The notes: generated from the letters alone by a model not told the origin. A DNA stretch of 32,055 bases from a virus (IMGVR_UViG_3300040810_000833:64001-96055); one strand, 5' to 3'; shown: positions 20,516 through 26,840, numbered from the stretch's first letter. Numbers and translations are program-made.

Positions 20516-21748
20516 TCATGAGACTTCTTCTTGGTCGACGTAGTCGTCATTTTCCTTTGCGATTCCCTCAAGCACCTTGAATGTCCAACCTTTATGCTTG
20601 TAGGCTCTCCATTCAGACGAGTCAACCCTAACACAAACCCCCTCCCTGACATGTCTTGTGTCAATGGGGTCTTCGCCGTCAGAGAGAGAATCAACTCTTT
20701 CAATAAGTGACTCTTGATCTCCATCGTAAATGAATCTGTCGAGTTCTGGGACATGTTTAACATCCCATTGCTCACACTTCTTCTTTACTTGATCCCAAGT
20801 TAGGTCGATGGTAGTTCCGTTTGGTAGAACATACGCAATACGGTAAATATAGATGTCAAACTCTCCAGGATTGCAGCCATAAGAGTATGTCATCGTCTCT
20901 CCGTAACGCTTTGCCTCTTTTGATTTATTTGTAGAGTGAGATGGCATAATAGACTTCTGCCCCTCATAACCAACAACTTCAAAAAAGACCTGCATATGAT
21001 CTTCTAAGTACGGCATAATACGACGAGCCACGGCATCACGCCAAGACTCTGAGTAGTATCCACCACCCTTACCTTTTAACGTAACCCTTCGCGTGCCATT
21101 GTATTCCCTCATCCCTTGAGTTCTTGAAAACCCAATAAGGTTAAACAGCTTGTCATACCACCTTGATTCTGCTTCTTCGATGTTTTTCGCAACACGCTGA
21201 GAAGTTCCATGCATTTTCAATGTCACGACGAGCGTCTGCCCTGCTTTGAGATCTGCGGTAGATCTTGCTAGGTGATCAGTTTCTTTATGCTCTGGAAACA
21301 CTGTGTACTTTTTAGATGCTTGATTTCTTGACATTCTTTCTGTTTTTGGCGTAATGTACTTTTTAGCAATTTCTACGCCGCAAAACTCAGTAATTTTATC
21401 ACCTGGGTTTAATACTGAAGTATCTCCGAAAGAACCTAAGTAAGAAATCGGGCACCAAAATCCACAGGACTTAATTCCCCGAAATTTCTGTGCTCTAACC
21501 CTTCGGTTTTCTTCAAACATTCCACCGGCCTTAGATCCGTCTTCGTTCTTTCTACGAACTAGGTCGTTGACTGCCGCAAAATCATACCCAAGCTGGAGTT
21601 CGCACGGAAAGTATAAACCAAGTGCATTGTCTTCTGTGTCTTTGGATACGATCACCGTTTCTCCACAAACATTACCAACCGCCAAGGAGTGAACTTCTGG
21701 GTCGGGGTGTGGAGTGACTTTGACTCTTGAAACAATCGCTGCGTGCAT
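20516..21748 (-). CDS. ATP-dependent RNA ligase (DRB0094/Rnl2-like) with N-terminal OB-like domain
   Basis: TLKMHGTS (motif I), FFEVVG, FDIYIY, REGVCVR, AYKHK nucleotidyltransferase motifs; AGGAGG RBS. Confidence 0.85.
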   Translation of the reverse strand: MHAAIVSRVKVTPHPDPEVHSLAVGNVCGETVIVSKDTEDNALGLYFPCELQLGYDFAAVNDLVRRKNEDGSKAGGMFEENRRVRAQKFRGIKSCGFWCPISYLGSFGDTSVLNPGDKITEFCGVEIAKKYITPKTERMSRNQASKKYTVFPEHKETDHLARSTADLKAGQTLVVTLKMHGTSQRVAKNIEEAESRWYDKLFNLIGFSRTQGMREYNGTRRVTLKGKGGGYYSESWRDAVARRIMPYLEDHMQVFFEVVGYEGQKSIMPSHSTNKSKEAKRYGETMTYSYGCNPGEFDIYIYRIAYVLPNGTTIDLTWDQVKKKCEQWDVKHVPELDRFIYDGDQESLIERVDSLSDGEDPIDTRHVREGVCVRVDSSEWRAYKHKGWTFKVLEGIAKENDDYVDQEEVS

Positions 21749-21795: not shown

Positions 21796-21823
21796 ATTCT
21801 ACAGCCAGTATCGTCATTGTCAA
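21796..21823 (-). promoter_or_regulatory. Sigma70-type promoter for RNA ligase gene
   Basis: TTGACA-N16-TAGAAT. Confidence 0.75.
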
Positions 21824-21848
21824 TGCGTTTCATCAAGAAAATTCAAAT

Positions 21849-21879
21849 AAAAAAGCCCGTTTGGATAACAAGGGCGGGC
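21849..21879 (-). terminator. Terminator ending the tmRNA coding piece
   Basis: GCCCG...CGGGC stem followed by T6. Confidence 0.75.
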
Positions 21880-22017
21880 AACCCCCCGTGACTACTCACG
21901 CAGCCATTGCGACATTTCTGCCTGCATTTATTTTTGATTAGATTTTTTAGCTGGCCCTTCTAATCACCCAGCACATGCAGTCGTTACCTACGTCACCTGT
22001 CAATTCCATTCACCCCC
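21855..22017 (-). ncRNA. ssrA: Two-piece tmRNA, coding piece
   Basis: 5' GGGGGTGAATGGAATTGACAGG (acceptor 5' strand plus D-loop); H-type pseudoknot GCTGG/CCAGC with GATTAGA/TCTAATC; AAAAATAAAT before the resume codon; tag ORF; stop-codon hairpin CGTGA-GTAG-TCACG. Confidence 0.9.
21896..21925 (-). other. tmRNA tag reading frame AGRNVAMAA*
   Basis: GCA GGC AGA AAT GTC GCA ATG GCT GCG TGA; hydrophobic AA C-terminus of ssrA degrons. Confidence 0.85.
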
Positions 22018-22556
22018 GTTGTTTTAGTAACTGCTCGTGCGAATTCTATAACATCTTCATCTGAAAATTTATTTCGAGCAAAGTTAAACATAACAGAAAC
22101 AAATCTAACATTGTCTACAGCATACCCTTTTGAATTATCAATTCTATCAAGACTTGCTGTTTTTAATCTTAATTTGTAGTTCTTAGATTGAGTTGGAAGT
22201 TCTAATGCCCAGCCAGTAAGAGGACAAATGCCTTTTTGAGAGTCCCAGATTTCTTTCAGAGATTCTAAAGTTATAGTAATTTCTTTACCTCTTCTGTGTA
22301 GTCTCCTAAAAGTTTCTCTAAATGGTGATAGCTCGTCAGCTCTGTTTCCAGCACGCTGAGATATGTCAAAATCACTTAGGTCTCTTATTCTTTTTAAATG
22401 ACTTAGTTGCTCAGGCTGTTTACCTGAACAAGACAGTCCACAATAAAACTTATCTTTACCCAACCTTATTCTTCTGTTATATTCTCCCTTCGATTTTTCA
22501 AATTCTTTGTTACAGGTTTCGCAGACGAGGGTTACTGTTTTCATCACAATCTCCAT
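21993..22556 (-). CDS. HNH-type (His-Me finger) endonuclease-like protein in the tmRNA intervening segment
   Basis: N-terminal CxxC...YCxxxC zinc motif; QKGICPLTG, SLDRIDNSKGY..DNV, N..RN motifs typical of phage homing-endonuclease-like proteins. Confidence 0.75.
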   Translation of the reverse strand: MEIVMKTVTLVCETCNKEFEKSKGEYNRRIRLGKDKFYCGLSCSGKQPEQLSHLKRIRDLSDFDISQRAGNRADELSPFRETFRRLHRRGKEITITLESLKEIWDSQKGICPLTGWALELPTQSKNYKLRLKTASLDRIDNSKGYAVDNVRFVSVMFNFARNKFSDEDVIEFARAVTKTTGVNGIDR

Positions 22557-22629
22557 TTAAGGTAATAGTAGTTTTATATCATACCATACACCAAAAACGA
22601 TGGAGAGCGTAAGAAAAAAAAATGGAGAG

Positions 22630-22706
22630 TGGAGGTGGGGGGCAACGATCCCCCGTCCAGTCTGATTTCAATAACAACGTCTACATGTTTATCCGGCTTA
22701 CGCCAG
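22630..22706 (-). ncRNA. ssrA: Two-piece tmRNA, acceptor piece
   Basis: CTGGC-GTAA-GCCGG hairpin, AAACATGTAG, then GGAC-GGGGG-ATCGTTG-CCCCC (T arm)-CACCTCC-A; pairs with GGGGGTG at 22017-22011 giving G3.U70 Ala identity; ACATGTA pairs with TGCATGT of the coding piece. Confidence 0.9.
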
Positions 22707-22709
22707 AAA

Positions 22710-22821
22710 AGGAGGGGCTGGACTCGAACCAGCATCAGGTTCCGACTTAGGAACGTGCCTTCCTCTTGGCACTTATTGGTATACTGCGTCCAGTATTGCC
22801 CGTCTTTATCATCACCCTCCC
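22710..22821 (-). ncRNA. Non-canonical tRNA-like RNA (acceptor + T arm + three hairpins)
   Basis: GGGAGGG/CCCTCCT acceptor, GCTGG-TTCGAGT-CCAGC T arm, hairpins ATACTG/CAGTAT, GTGCC/GGCAC (8-nt loop), GTTCC/GGAAC; no canonical D arm or anticodon loop. Confidence 0.65.
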
Positions 22822-22831
22822 CTAAAACTCT

Positions 22832-22885: not shown

Positions 22886-22895
22886 TTTCATTAAT

Positions 22896-23027
22896 TGATG
22901 GCCGGTGGAGTCGAACCACCATATGCGGTATATCTACCTATTTGCTCTCCAAGATAAAAGGGAATCGAACCCTAACGCCCTAACCACTAGGAAAACGGAG
23001 TCGAACCGTCTACATTCCAACGCCATC
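22896..23027 (-). ncRNA. tRNA-like RNA with three T-arms
   Basis: GATGGC/GCCATC closing stem plus discriminator A; arms GACGG-TTCGACT-CCGTT, AGGG-TTCGATT-CCCT, GGTGG-TTCGACT-CCACC. Confidence 0.75.
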
Positions 23028-23030
23028 TAA

Positions 23031-23114
23031 TAGGAGAAGAGGGATTCGAACCCCCGAAGGCATAATGCCGCTAGATTTACAGTCTAGTCCTTTTGGCCGC
23101 TTAGGTATTCTCCT
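23031..23114 (-). tRNA. tRNA-Tyr(GTA)
   Basis: CTAGA-CT-GTA-AA-TCTAG anticodon arm, long variable arm, TTCGAAT T loop, AGGAGAA/TTCTCCT acceptor. Confidence 0.93.
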
Positions 23115-23119
23115 ATAAA

Positions 23120-23255
23120 AATCAGACAAGTCAAGGTTACGTTGTGTTTTTATCACCGGCAGTATTTCTACGTCTTTCCCTCATATATTGCTATATGTCC
23201 AGTGTTTATTTCACAATAACTACGGTCTTTAGCCCCTTGATACATTAACCTGATT
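23120..23255 (-). ncRNA. Candidate structured ncRNA rich in GNRA hairpins
   Basis: AATCAGG/TCTGATT and TCAAGG/CCTTGA closing stems; TTATT-GTGA-AATAA, CATATA-GCAA-TATATG, GTA-GAAA-TAC. Confidence 0.55.
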
Positions 23256-23261
23256 AAATAA

Positions 23262-23400
23262 CGCCGCATAATGGAATCGAACCATTTTCTCCCGGGCACC
23301 CCGGTTGTTTTAACACTATATCACATTTCGCGAAAATGTCAAGTGCGAATTCTCTAAATTTAGCTACGATCTAGAAAGCTCTCCATTAAACTAATGCGGC
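23262..23400 (-). ncRNA. tRNA-like RNA with a large insertion containing a promoter
   Basis: GCCGCAT/ATGCGGC acceptor, TAGTTTAATGG D-arm, AATGG-TTCGATT-CCATT T arm, 9-bp stem with 9-nt loop, then about 60 extra nt. Confidence 0.65.
23315..23342 (-). promoter_or_regulatory. Sigma70-type promoter inside the tRNA-like element
   Basis: TTGACA-N16-TATAGT, extended -10 (TGn), inverted repeat ACATTT-TCGCG-AAATGT. Confidence 0.7.
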
Positions 23401-23477
23401 AATCCTCACCTATTCGACGAACTCAAACCAGTTCTATTTGCTCATTATTCCATCCTTAGAATGTGTCACAAAACTGA

Positions 23478-23544: not shown

Positions 23545-24915
23545 TCATTGGGCTTCTGCAATAAATCTCAGGAATTGATCCGACCATCCCGAAATTTCTG
23601 CATCCCATACACCCCTGTAATTAATTCCATTTTGGTGACAACTTACATCAATGATGTAGTTTTTCTTGCCAAATGGACTTGGGGCTTTATTGGTGAGGTC
23701 GCAGTCTTGGCTGTCGCTGAACACAATAACTGTGTCGGTATTCTTTTCAAGTGGTCTTAGGTGATCCATACACTGCCGTGTAAAAATACCCCCGTAGCCA
23801 GCAGCGTTCTTGTTTGCACGAATCTCTTTCATTAATCCAAAACCGCGAAGGTTAGAAACTTTAATTGTCCTGTGTGTAGTATAGCCTCCCGCTGTAATGT
23901 AAATAGAAACCCCTTCGCACATTTCTGCCGCCATCATAGCCATAGAAATTCCCACGTCAAGTCTTGTATGTTTAGATTTTACGGAAATAGGACAATTCAT
24001 ACTTCCAGACACATCAAGGACAAAAACTGTCTCCCCCTTAATTTTTGGCAGTTCTGATAAGCAACGGAACATTAAGCCTTCCAAGTCAGGCATAAAGTCC
24101 GGGGCAGCTTCTGCAGCCTTGATAAAATCAACGGGAAGCAATGCTGATGTAGAGCATTGACTGATAGCTTTTCGGATGTTGGCCTTAGATACTCCAACCT
24201 GCTGCATGTTTCGTAAATTCCTCAGAACCGCTAAGGCACCAAGGCTCCGACTAGAAATCATATCTTCCCAGATATTCTTTTTTTCCTCATCTGACTTGGC
24301 TGCTGAATAACGAACCTCCCAAGTGTCTGGAGAGGTCAGTGTGCCATTAGCTAATTCCTTAAATAACAGTGACTGCTCTTGGTCTTTTGGTTTTGGGTGT
24401 GTCAGGAACAGAATGTCACGTAGACGAATATCAGCATCTCTATTCCACTTTGAGAGTTGATATCTGTCAAAATTAACCATTGCATCAGCCATTCCAAGTC
24501 GCAGCTGTCGAGAGATAGGCGTTCTTCCTTCTCTCCAGTAAAGAGCGAGTAGTTCAGTCAGTTGATCTGGTCGTGTACATACCTGCCGCACAGTTTCACG
24601 AACGAACGGTGCGTGCGTTTTGTATCGACACATTTCACGCACAACGAGCAATGGAACATGTCGCAGCTTCTGATCTCGTCGTGCAGAGACCGCTAAATCA
24701 GCACAGAATTTACCACTAACTGTTGGAATTAACTTACAAATCTCTGAGGCGATTTCAACACCGTCTTGATATGCGTTATCTTCCCATAGCAAACAGGTAA
24801 GAACCATACGCTTCAGTTCGTTTTCGTTCGACTGATTCGCTGCACGCAGGCCTTTACCTCCAGCAAGTCTTGCTGTCTTCATTTGCGGTGTTTTTGTTCT
24901 TACGTTGGTTCTCAT
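23545..24915 (-). CDS. rsr: Ro60 / TROVE-domain RNA-binding protein
   Basis: ELKRMVLTCLLWED..Y, KLRHVP, RPDQLTELL, FDRYQLSKW, TWE, LGALAVLRNLRNM, and vWA MIDAS FVLDVSGSM...FSDSQD; AAGGAG RBS. Confidence 0.92.
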   Translation of the reverse strand: MRTNVRTKTPQMKTARLAGGKGLRAANQSNENELKRMVLTCLLWEDNAYQDGVEIASEICKLIPTVSGKFCADLAVSARRDQKLRHVPLLVVREMCRYKTHAPFVRETVRQVCTRPDQLTELLALYWREGRTPISRQLRLGMADAMVNFDRYQLSKWNRDADIRLRDILFLTHPKPKDQEQSLLFKELANGTLTSPDTWEVRYSAAKSDEEKKNIWEDMISSRSLGALAVLRNLRNMQQVGVSKANIRKAISQCSTSALLPVDFIKAAEAAPDFMPDLEGLMFRCLSELPKIKGETVFVLDVSGSMNCPISVKSKHTRLDVGISMAMMAAEMCEGVSIYITAGGYTTHRTIKVSNLRGFGLMKEIRANKNAAGYGGIFTRQCMDHLRPLEKNTDTVIVFSDSQDCDLTNKAPSPFGKKNYIIDVSCHQNGINYRGVWDAEISGWSDQFLRFIAEAQ

Positions 24916-25371: not shown

Positions 25372-25519
25372 AAAGAGAGGTAACATTCGGTGCGAGAATT
25401 TTTAGCGTGCTACCGTTACACTACCGACCCACCAGCACGACGGCGGTGGACCAGGCTGGATTCGAACCAGCACAGCTCGATTAACATTCGATGAATCTCA
25501 CATCTTCGACACTCTCTTT
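25372..25519 (-). ncRNA. yrlA: YrlA-type Y RNA with a permuted tRNA-like domain
   Basis: GTCGAAG Ro60-binding motif in the terminal stem; T arm GCTGG-TTCGAAT-CCAGC, loop-closed acceptor stem, D arm TA-GTGT-AACGGTA-GCAC in T-acceptor-D order; near rsr and rtcB. Confidence 0.85.
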
Positions 25520-25787: not shown

Positions 25788-26840
25788 CTATCCTTTAATG
25801 TTTAAAATTGGGCGAATATAATCCACCACATCAACAGAGTCCACCTGAAGTTCCATGACTTCAAAGATATTTTTATACGCCATCGGCGATTCGTCAAGGG
25901 TATCTTTAGAAATATTTGCACAAACGCCAATCATTTGCTGCTTAAATTCTTCAATAGATAGTTTTCTTTTTGCCTCTTTTCTTCCATAGACTCGACCAGC
26001 ACCGTGAGAAGACGAACATATCCAGTCTGGATTGCCCTTACCTCTAACAATAAATGATCCATCACGCATATTTCCAGGAATCACACCCATCATTCCGTCT
26101 TCGGCGTGCGTGGCCCCTTTTCTATGAATCCATCCTCCATCCTTTAGTTCTGCGTGATTGTGGTTGCGGTTTACGGTTTCGATTATATCTCCGTCAATAA
26201 CGCTTGCCGCAGCTTGAGCCATCGCGAGTCGCGAATCCAAGGCATATTGTAGGCAAAATGCAAGATCATTCATGTAGTCGTCATGATCCTGACTTCCAAC
26301 CTCTAGGTGTGCATTGCAGTTCTTAATGTACCAAGAGGCAACGGAATGACCAAAGCCCCTAGATCCGGAATGAACCACAACCCATAAATGATTGTCGCGA
26401 CCCCTACCGACTTCGACGAAATGATTACCCCCGCCAAGAGTCCCGAGTTGCTTCAAGAATTTTTCCTTTTGATCTCTCCAAACTCTAAGACCAGGTGTGT
26501 CTTCTGTCGGATCATCATATGTTCTAATTCTCTCGTGGCAATTAAAGCCTACTGGAATCAGTTTTTCAATATCTGACTTGATCTTTGCTGCTTTATTCTG
26601 ATCAATATCAGTCGTGCTGTCAAGCTTTAACGCAGTCATTCCACAGCCAATATCAAATCCAACCCATGCAGGAACAACGACACCATCAGTCTTTACAACA
26701 GCACCAATCGGCAAATCATACCCTTGGTGTGCATCCGGCATTAATGCCCCATCAATAGCGAAATCAAAAGACATGCAGTTATCCATCTGGGTAACGGCAC
26801 CTTCTTCAAGAATCTCTGCGTATACACGGTACTTTGACAT
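25788..26840 (-). CDS. rtcB: RtcB RNA ligase
   Basis: MPDAH.G, VGFDIGCG, TLGGGNHFVE, HSGSRG, HNH, HRKGAT, IPGNM, SSSHGAGR, DESPMAYK. Confidence 0.96.
   Translation of the reverse strand: MSKYRVYAEILEEGAVTQMDNCMSFDFAIDGALMPDAHQGYDLPIGAVVKTDGVVVPAWVGFDIGCGMTALKLDSTTDIDQNKAAKIKSDIEKLIPVGFNCHERIRTYDDPTEDTPGLRVWRDQKEKFLKQLGTLGGGNHFVEVGRGRDNHLWVVVHSGSRGFGHSVASWYIKNCNAHLEVGSQDHDDYMNDLAFCLQYALDSRLAMAQAAASVIDGDIIETVNRNHNHAELKDGGWIHRKGATHAEDGMMGVIPGNMRDGSFIVRGKGNPDWICSSSHGAGRVYGRKEAKRKLSIEEFKQQMIGVCANISKDTLDESPMAYKNIFEVMELQVDSVDVVDYIRPILNIKG

Follow-up and report, generated by a model that had tools for sequence, protein, structure and literature searches.

A phage RNA family with a single tRNA-type acceptor stem and three T-arms

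Introduction

Phage tRNA clusters are usually seen as codon-supply kits or as spares against anticodon nucleases. The stretch of viral DNA analysed here, 32,055 nucleotides (nt) long (IMGVR_UViG_3300040810_000833:64001-96055, hereafter the window), carries on its minus strand a phage-type RNA island in which ARAGORN places 12 tRNAs between 22895 and 27762 and Rfam supports 11. A 132-nt gene lies in this island, on the same strand and 3 nt downstream of a tRNA-Tyr gene (22896-23027). Its product, which we call the 3T RNA, has one acceptor stem and three T-arms. The tRNA elbow, where G18/G19 meet pseudouridine-55/C56, is recognized by RNase P, T-loop modification enzymes, T-boxes, and the ribosome, and the 3T RNA presents the T-arm part of that structure in triplicate. 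A conserved RNA that does not decode is found within phage tRNA clusters, and in some small phages it is the sole tRNA-like gene.

Results

An earlier note on this DNA had proposed a minus-strand parse at 23027-22896 with three canonical TTCGANT loops, and the sequence agrees with that parse letter for letter. The three loops are present as three GGTTCGANTCC sites within the element (22997-23007, 22961-22971, and 22907-22917). This motif occurs 15 times in the window, against 0.03 occurrences expected by chance, and none of the three sites in the element falls within an Rfam-supported tRNA. The Rfam tRNA model RF00005 (gathering threshold 29 bits) has no match on 22896-23027 even at E values up to 10. 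The anticodon arm is absent and a hairpin with a 4-nt loop stands in its place, so the element is not a tRNA.

Folding of the single sequence gave a minimum-energy structure unlike the conserved one (z = -1.56, not significant). Since the fold of one sequence was uninformative, the structure was judged by comparison with relatives, and its support is comparative, not thermodynamic. A first scan of IMG/VR for a T-loop, GTGGT, and another T-loop at short spacing yielded contigs with the same full layout. A covariance model was then seeded by the window sequence alone, together with the stems read from it, because MAFFT seed alignments misplaced the variable 5′ junction. This single-sequence model scored 72-80 bits on unrelated contigs from the first scan. 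A second IMG/VR scan, for three T-loops at the family spacing, returned 66 loci, 28 of which were full-length matches to the model. The same three-T-loop pattern gave 71 loci in 185,579 bacterial and archaeal species (one genome each), with only 3 members among them. A metagenome scan that left out the T-arm 1 constraint added 15 more members, including an identical copy (L281) and a close relative (L280). The family comprises 42 distinct sequences, the window and 41 others, of 116-149 nt and 39-66% GC, aligned end to end, and the full-length model matches behind it (26 viral, 3 from bacterial contigs, and 15 metagenomic) have E values from 1e-6 to 1e-45.

BLAST with the GC-rich members located the RNA in eight cultured Streptomyces phage records (Comrade, SparkleGoddess, Belfort, Karp, Stigma, Moab, Patelgo). 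The window region itself matched cultured phages by BLAST only in its tRNA-Tyr part, BLAST with members L073, L094, and L068 found nothing, and a search for related loci by way of the TROVE protein found none. The family is near-restricted to phages and is spread over phages of very different hosts.

Covariation was assessed in an alignment of 26 viral members fitted by the model itself. Standard pairs fill 97.7% of cells; the figure drops to 65.9% after column shuffling and to 44-58% after the 3′ partners are shifted by 1-3 columns. Both sides have changed in 23 of 28 pairs, and all six helices covary strongly. T-arms 1, 2, and 3 (T1, T2, T3) and hairpin H4 were also recovered by RNAalifold on a plain, model-free MAFFT alignment. 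Every stem of the original parse (acceptor, 6 base pairs (bp); T1, 5; T2, 4; the GGTA/TACC hairpin, 4; T3, 5) is kept through compensatory changes in relatives, and the combination of one acceptor stem with three T-arms in one RNA is conserved. That the 3T RNA is a real, conserved, structured RNA gene is in our judgment virtually certain. In its secondary structure a tRNA-type acceptor stem closes a junction of seven helices.

The helix that closes the junction begins with the acceptor-like 5′ strand GAUGGC (23022-23027), which pairs with GCCAUC; this 3′ strand is followed by discriminator A at 22896 (22896-22902 in all), and CCA is not encoded. All six acceptor pairs have changed on both sides among the 26 sequences, in which 98% of their cells pair. 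G7 (23021), at the stem base, faces G66 (22903) without pairing. The 7:66 opposition is usually non-Watson-Crick (G.G in the window, G.A in L280, A.C most commonly in the family), and L280 retains the mismatch through a change of G66 to A. There follows a stemless 5′ junction, J1 (UUGGAAUGUA, 23011-23020), with the alignment consensus NN-GG-A/U-A-N-G-GUA. T1 (GACGG-UUCGACU-CCGUU, 22994-23010) has double changes in 4 of 5 pairs. The segment TAGTGGTTAG, previously described as D-loop-like, is better drawn as a 4-bp D-arm-like hairpin, hp2 (CCUA-GUGGU-UAGG, 22979-22991), with double changes in 4 of 4 pairs and GG in a loop of consensus N-Y-G-G-Y; in L280 its stem has changed in a compensated way, from CCUA/UAGG to CCC/GGG. 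T2 (AGGG-UUCGAUU-CCCU, 22959-22973) has a 4-bp stem with 100% of cells paired, its two outer pairs covarying and its two inner G-C pairs invariant.

Downstream of T2 a candidate mini-hairpin, hp3 (UCU-UGG-AGA, 22946-22954), may form a second GG-presenting loop; its stems differ among relatives (CCU/AGG, CCA/UGG, CUA/UAG, UAC/GUA). The conserved linker GCAAAUA (22939-22945; family consensus GC-N-AAUA) leads to H4 (GGUA-GAUA-UACC, 22927-22938), a hairpin at the anticodon-arm position with double changes in 4 of 4 pairs. T3 (GGUGG-UUCGACU-CCACC, 22904-22920) has covariation in 3 of 5 pairs and, like the T-arm of a tRNA, directly adjoins the acceptor 3′ strand. Across the family T1 is followed by 2 nt (the second mostly U), hp2, 3-5 nt, T2, about 4 nt, and hp3 (2-4 bp, YGG), and then by GC-N-AAUA, H4 (GGGN-GNNR-NCCC), 5-6 nt, T3, the acceptor 3′ strand, and the discriminator. 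The strongest conservation outside the T-loops is AAUAGGG...CCCGC. In the MAFFT alignment AAUAG hardly varies; the metagenome fetch pattern included it and the viral one did not.

Three elements of this layout carry GG: J1 (GG.A..GUA), the hairpin loop NYGGY, and, tentatively, the small YGG hairpin. One D-loop-like partner is thus available for each of the three T-loops, which fits the description of the element as a multivalent elbow. The T1 loop remains UUCRANU in 14 of the 15 members that were fetched without requiring it. Position N59 is U in 31 of 37 members for T1 and in 25 of 37 for T2; in T3 it is free (C 11, A 10, U 8, G 8), which is how ordinary tRNAs behave at this position. By these counts T1 and T2 are under extra constraint, and T3 resembles any other tRNA T-loop.

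The earlier note had allowed that the element could resolve into pieces of decayed tRNA genes that do not covary. It does not, as 42 distinct members share the same seven-helix layout and covary strongly, which rules out decayed tRNA fragments. That tRNA gene fragments have decayed or fused, or that the RNA is an aberrant decoding tRNA, is hardly credible, and what counts for it is annotation. ARAGORN calls a tRNA-Pro(tgg) at 22895-22989, an artefact in which the GG loop of a small hairpin is taken as the anticodon. Members have no conserved 7-nt anticodon loop, and the supposed anticodon is the invariant GG of that small loop. ARAGORN also names members inconsistently, as Pro in the window and Ser in Comrade. 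In the GenBank record of Comrade (NC_048728 77362-77443; L172:1486-1567) the 82 nt annotated as tRNA-Ser(tcg) are the 5′ two-thirds of a 3T RNA that the model matches at L172:1492-1622 with 51.8 bits, and the homologous stretch is unannotated in Stigma, Moab, and Patelgo. In practical terms, current annotation either misnames the 3T RNA as tRNA-Ser or tRNA-Pro or omits it.

The gene immediately upstream in the window is tRNA-Tyr(GTA) (23030-23115, minus strand), called by both ARAGORN and Rfam (57.4 bits). Farther upstream, a consensus scan found a candidate operon promoter of near-consensus sigma-70 type, TTGACA-16-TATAGT (23315-23342, minus strand; 11 of 12 matches with TG, a pattern match only). 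Contigs from RNA libraries of three studies (X15, X17, X18) cover the 3T RNA and two of them bridge to tRNA-Tyr; they stop at 22817 and at 23144/23145 and carry no information on RNA ends, strand, or level. The 3T RNA is probably co-transcribed with tRNA-Tyr, and the contigs are compatible with this without being proof of it.

As a separate observation, a tRNA-like frame surrounds the candidate promoter (23262-23401, minus strand). It has a 7-bp acceptor (GCCGCAU/AUGCGGC), a D-arm-like segment, and a T-arm (AAUGGUUCGAUUCCAUU), and its interior of about 95 nt holds the near-perfect TTGACA-16-TATAGT. A canonical T-loop (GGTTCGAATCC) also lies at 25458-25468 (minus strand), outside all ARAGORN and Rfam tRNAs.

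Of 29 member loci, 19 have the 3T RNA among tRNAs; it shares their strand in every case, and the gap to the next tRNA is often 1-15 nt. Such tight spacing fits excision at defined ends by the tRNA-processing machinery. The discriminator is A in 28 of 42 members, and CCA is encoded in only 4 of 42. The remaining 10 member loci are without tRNAs. Two complete genomes, of 43 and 46.5 kb, have a 3T RNA and no tRNA at all, and in locus L090 the 3T RNA is antisense to both neighboring open reading frames (ORFs). From these tRNA-less genomes and this antisense placement we conclude that the 3T RNA is a gene in its own right. It is present in one copy per genome in the five records searched whole.

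In the two complete tRNA-less records the 3T RNA lies less than 300 nt from the left record end (G022:16-164 and G024:147-282). G024 has direct terminal repeats, and the left-end position may reflect either the opening of the record or a genome terminus.

Tight packing between tRNAs, or between same-strand genes as in L026, might also be expected of a cis-acting processing or punctuation element that attracts RNase P and RNase Z to cut or stabilize a polycistronic transcript. This is highly improbable, because a single minihelix would do for that purpose and three conserved T-arms plus H4 far exceed it, and because the L090 copy is antisense to both of its neighbors.

A split (permuted) tmRNA gene lies downstream of the 3T RNA in the window (21800-22688, minus strand), at a distance of about 210 nt. 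Its acceptor piece is at 22600-22688 (RF04321, 27.7-29.6 bits), its coding piece starts with GGGGGUGAAUGG at 22017 (RF00023, 24.8 bits), and a 187-aa ORF (21993-22556) lies between the two pieces. The 3T RNA might be related to the tRNA-like domain of tmRNA; in that case it would be charged, bound by SmpB or EF-Tu, or both, and would either hinder or help ribosome rescue. Both lack an anticodon, carry a discriminator A, and stack the acceptor on a T-arm, and in both the acceptor 5′ strand is followed directly by a stemless, GG-containing analogue of the D-loop. In the 3T RNA this 5′ junction (acceptor, 2-3 nt, GGAAU) resembles the 5′ end of the window's tmRNA (GGGGGUGAAUGGAAUUGAC, a D-loop analogue), a likeness judged by eye only. 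In Comrade the 3T RNA is likewise found about 95-105 nt upstream of tmRNA, and its T3 and acceptor 3′ strand score as a permuted-tmRNA acceptor piece (49.5 bits).

The alanine identity pair of tmRNA is G3.U70; it is found in only 2 of 26 members, and the window has U3-A70. The 3T RNA has no mRNA-like part, no shared open tag frame with a stop, and no pseudoknots; its interior is filled by two extra T-arms and two hairpins, and tmRNA has nothing that corresponds to T1, hp2, or T2. Matches of the Rfam tmRNA models to the element are no larger than a T-loop (9.5-9.8 bits). The 18 other member loci that were scanned yielded no tmRNA, and the two genes are adjacent in only two lineages. The rarity of G3.U70, the missing coding part, and this narrow adjacency rule out a tmRNA domain as such, and a relationship of the kind described above is quite improbable.

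Another long tRNA-like RNA, of about 112 nt, is located in the window 75 nt downstream of the 3T RNA (22710-22822, minus strand), with acceptor GGGGAGG/CCCCUCC, a canonical T-arm (GCUGGUUCGAGUCCAGC), no tRNA-type D or anticodon arms, and only 12 bits against the Rfam tmRNA model. L011, a small phage contig that also has a 3T RNA and an RNA ligase, contains an 81-nt stretch (L011:7989-8069, plus strand) that the full tmRNA model matches over positions 1-374 with 60 bits and that looks like a tmRNA tRNA-like domain without a coding part.

Upstream of the 3T RNA on the same strand are a TROVE/Ro60 gene, at 0.5 kb (23545-24915), and rtcB (25788-26840), and an RNA ligase gene lies downstream (20516-21748, minus strand). 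This neighborhood recalls the bacterial rsr-yrlBA-rtcBA operon and raises the possibility that the 3T RNA is a Y-RNA-like partner of phage Ro60, as YrlA is of Rsr. YrlA (RF02553) is also a non-decoding RNA of bacteria and phages with a tRNA-like T-arm and D-arm module, often encoded beside Ro60 and RtcB. Moreover, TROVE is encoded in all three complete member genomes of at least 115 kb and in one 55%-complete, 61-kb record.

However, a regular-expression scan of the 42 members for the Ro60-binding motif of YrlA, GNCGAAN0-1G (Chen et al. 2014, PMC4201824), found it in none, and RF02553 (gathering score 69 bits) has no match on the element. In YrlA a single T-arm and a D-arm are separated by a closed 'acceptor' hairpin, and a long terminal Ro60-binding stem, with the motif near its 5′ end, encloses the order V-T-AS-D. 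The 3T RNA has an open tRNA-type acceptor end, a 6-bp terminal stem of variable sequence, and the order J1-T-D-like-T-D-like-H4-T. Six complete genomes of 42-85 kb have the 3T RNA and lack TROVE, and in four other TROVE-bearing member genomes the two genes are 6-16 kb apart. Motif, model, and module order rule out a YrlA-type Y RNA, and the six TROVE-less genomes rule out dependence on phage Ro60. Partnership with phage Ro60 in a Y-RNA-like form, as a role in the large phages, is improbable.

A constant protein neighbor was not found by all-versus-all BLASTP of the ORFs within 5 kb of 29 members, together with five complete member genomes, close relatives excepted. The Pfam names of the flanking genes are mutually unrelated (ParB_N, AAA_24, helicase, sigma-like, cytidylyltransferase).

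Discussion

Non-decoding tRNA-like RNAs are already known in phages and bacteria, with T4 RNA C/D and YrlA as examples. What is new in the 3T family is that a single acceptor stem is combined with three canonical T-arms and with GG loops to match them, an architecture absent from Rfam and from the literature searched. The claim that this layout lies outside known RNA families stands, in that no Rfam family matched; searches of the element at E values up to 10 returned only trivial, T-arm-sized matches (Tymo_tRNA-like, beta_tmRNA, plastid 3′UTR). Literature searches turned up no relevant work on multi-T-arm RNAs, and the main text of a viral structured-RNA catalogue (PMC10690425) has no such family. 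That catalogue holds more than 10,000 candidate viral structured RNAs, and the 3T family may be among them.

By genomic setting, the nearest analogues are the species 1 and 2 RNAs of T4 (rnaC and rnaD), which are stable, about 120-140 nt long, and encoded on the tRNA strand of a phage tRNA cluster. The T4 record labels both 'small, stable RNA' and names no function. The 3′ end of rnaC is a canonical T-arm (CCGGGUUCGAAUCCCGG) with a short tail, but rnaC has one T-arm, not three, and none was seen in rnaD. Homology can be set aside, as model R1 with filters off gave 13.4 bits on rnaC, the level of an ordinary tRNA, and nothing on rnaD. Plant-virus tRNA-like structures and mascRNA also use a tRNA shape to engage tRNA-processing enzymes. 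Each of these has a single elbow and belongs to eukaryotes or RNA viruses, and Rfam matches of such models on the element were trivial, to a T-arm.

The 3T RNA is a stable, non-decoding, tRNA-like RNA, and we tentatively propose that it is a processed mimic of up to three elbow modules that acts in trans. It would be transcribed together with neighboring tRNAs and excised as a tRNA is, by RNase P at G1, 3′ trimming, and CCA addition. The stack of the acceptor on T3, with its discriminator, makes the RNA an expected substrate of RNase P, 3′ trimming, and the CCA-adding enzyme. Ends defined at 1-15 nt from tRNAs, placement on the tRNA strand, the discriminator A, and the rarity of encoded CCA also count for tRNA-like processing, and we consider it quite likely that the RNA is processed like a tRNA. 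TrmA and TruB accept isolated T-arms, so three full GG-UUCGANU-CC arms are expected to be substrates of both.

Each T-loop would then be capped by one GG element, giving up to three tRNA-elbow-like modules per molecule; whether three elbows are formed we regard as evenly balanced. Two pairing registers are geometrically plausible. In one, each GG element would pair with the T-arm that follows it; in the other, the 5′ junction would pair with T3, as in tmRNA, and each hairpin with the preceding T-arm. A tRNA mimic of this kind could engage, and probably titrate, a factor of host or phage origin for which T-arms or elbows, and not anticodons, are the recognition signal. Such a role as an elbow or T-arm mimic or decoy is possible, if somewhat doubtful, and its likeliest setting would be the phage-host contest over tRNA damage and repair. 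If the mimic reading is true, it points to an elbow-reading factor in host or phage and to a new route by which phages manipulate tRNA biology.

A more specific version of this proposal is RNA-based counter-defence, in which a three-elbow decoy would soak up or mis-direct an elbow-reading host factor such as a tRNA-targeting defence nuclease or toxin. We think this version unlikely; were it true, the 3T RNA would be a tRNA-world counterpart of phage pseudo-ToxI RNAs and RNA anti-CRISPRs. Bolder still is the idea that, on the ribosome or RNase P, the three elbows simultaneously fill several of the sites where tRNA elbows dock.

Several points weigh against an elbow mimic. A decoy for anticodon nucleases is unlikely, as there is no anticodon loop, and for a decoy of enzymes that attack 3′ ends three T-arms would be superfluous. 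Because the fetch patterns required GTTCGANTCC, some of the invariance seen in the T2 and T3 loops is artefactual. The free-register permutation test for hp3, the third GG element, was not significant (2.97 versus 2.83 +/- 0.14); a fixed-register test was significant, with the bias that its register had been chosen on native pairs. Covariation between T-loop position 59 and the letters of the GG loops gave no usable signal beyond the U59 preference of T1 and T2, and since these nucleotides are constant, covariation is silent on which GG element goes with which T-loop. DNA carry-over is possible in the RNA-library contigs, which give no ends. Without a constant neighbor, the genomes offer no genetic pointer to a target. 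The frequency of RNA-repair genes in member phages does count for a theme of RNA damage: of 29 member records, 9 have RNA ligase (PF09414) and 5 have TROVE, compared with 2 and 3, respectively, of 36 control phage records. This excess is modest, however; the counts ignore relatedness and were not rigorously dereplicated, and the control phages themselves have odd multi-T-loop RNAs.

The T-loops could instead serve just to build a compact fold, the part they play in RNase P, riboswitches, and rRNA, and the function of the RNA would then be unrelated to mimicry. Such a fold might bind a protein or ligand through GC-N-AAUA / GGGN-GNNR-NCCCGC, or T1 and T2 might form a receptor that docks a tRNA elbow. 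T-loops serve as general tertiary modules and, when paired, as elbow receptors, as described in PMC4810234 and PMC4919913, and this counts for a compact fold, as do the strong conservation of AAUAGGG...CCCGC and the preference of T1 and T2 for U59, which is unlike ordinary T-loops. Against it, all three loops keep the full GG-UUCGANU-CC, beyond the minimal five-nucleotide T-loop motif, the three GG elements match the three T-loops one to one, and the acceptor stem, T3, and discriminator make up a tRNA frame. On balance there is a real but minor chance that the T-loops are purely architectural, in which case the 3T RNA would be a compact new fold made from canonical tRNA parts. Both this outcome and the elbow mimic that we favor are testable, as cultured Streptomyces phages carry the 3T RNA.

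The 3T RNA is not the only unusual RNA in phages. The IMG/VR loci L018:187-270, L014, L021, L024, L031, L033, L034, and L022 have RNAs with two T-arms split by a GUGGU-type segment and closed by a long terminal stem, as in AAUGAAUGGUGAU...AUCGCCAUUCAUU of L034. Found mostly in very large phages, they seem to represent at least one additional family of multi-T-arm tRNA-like RNAs. Finally, one member phage carries a GOLLD RNA (RF02032, 176.7 bits; L035:8272-8707, minus strand) in a cluster of 37 tRNAs, 1.6 kb from its own 3T RNA.
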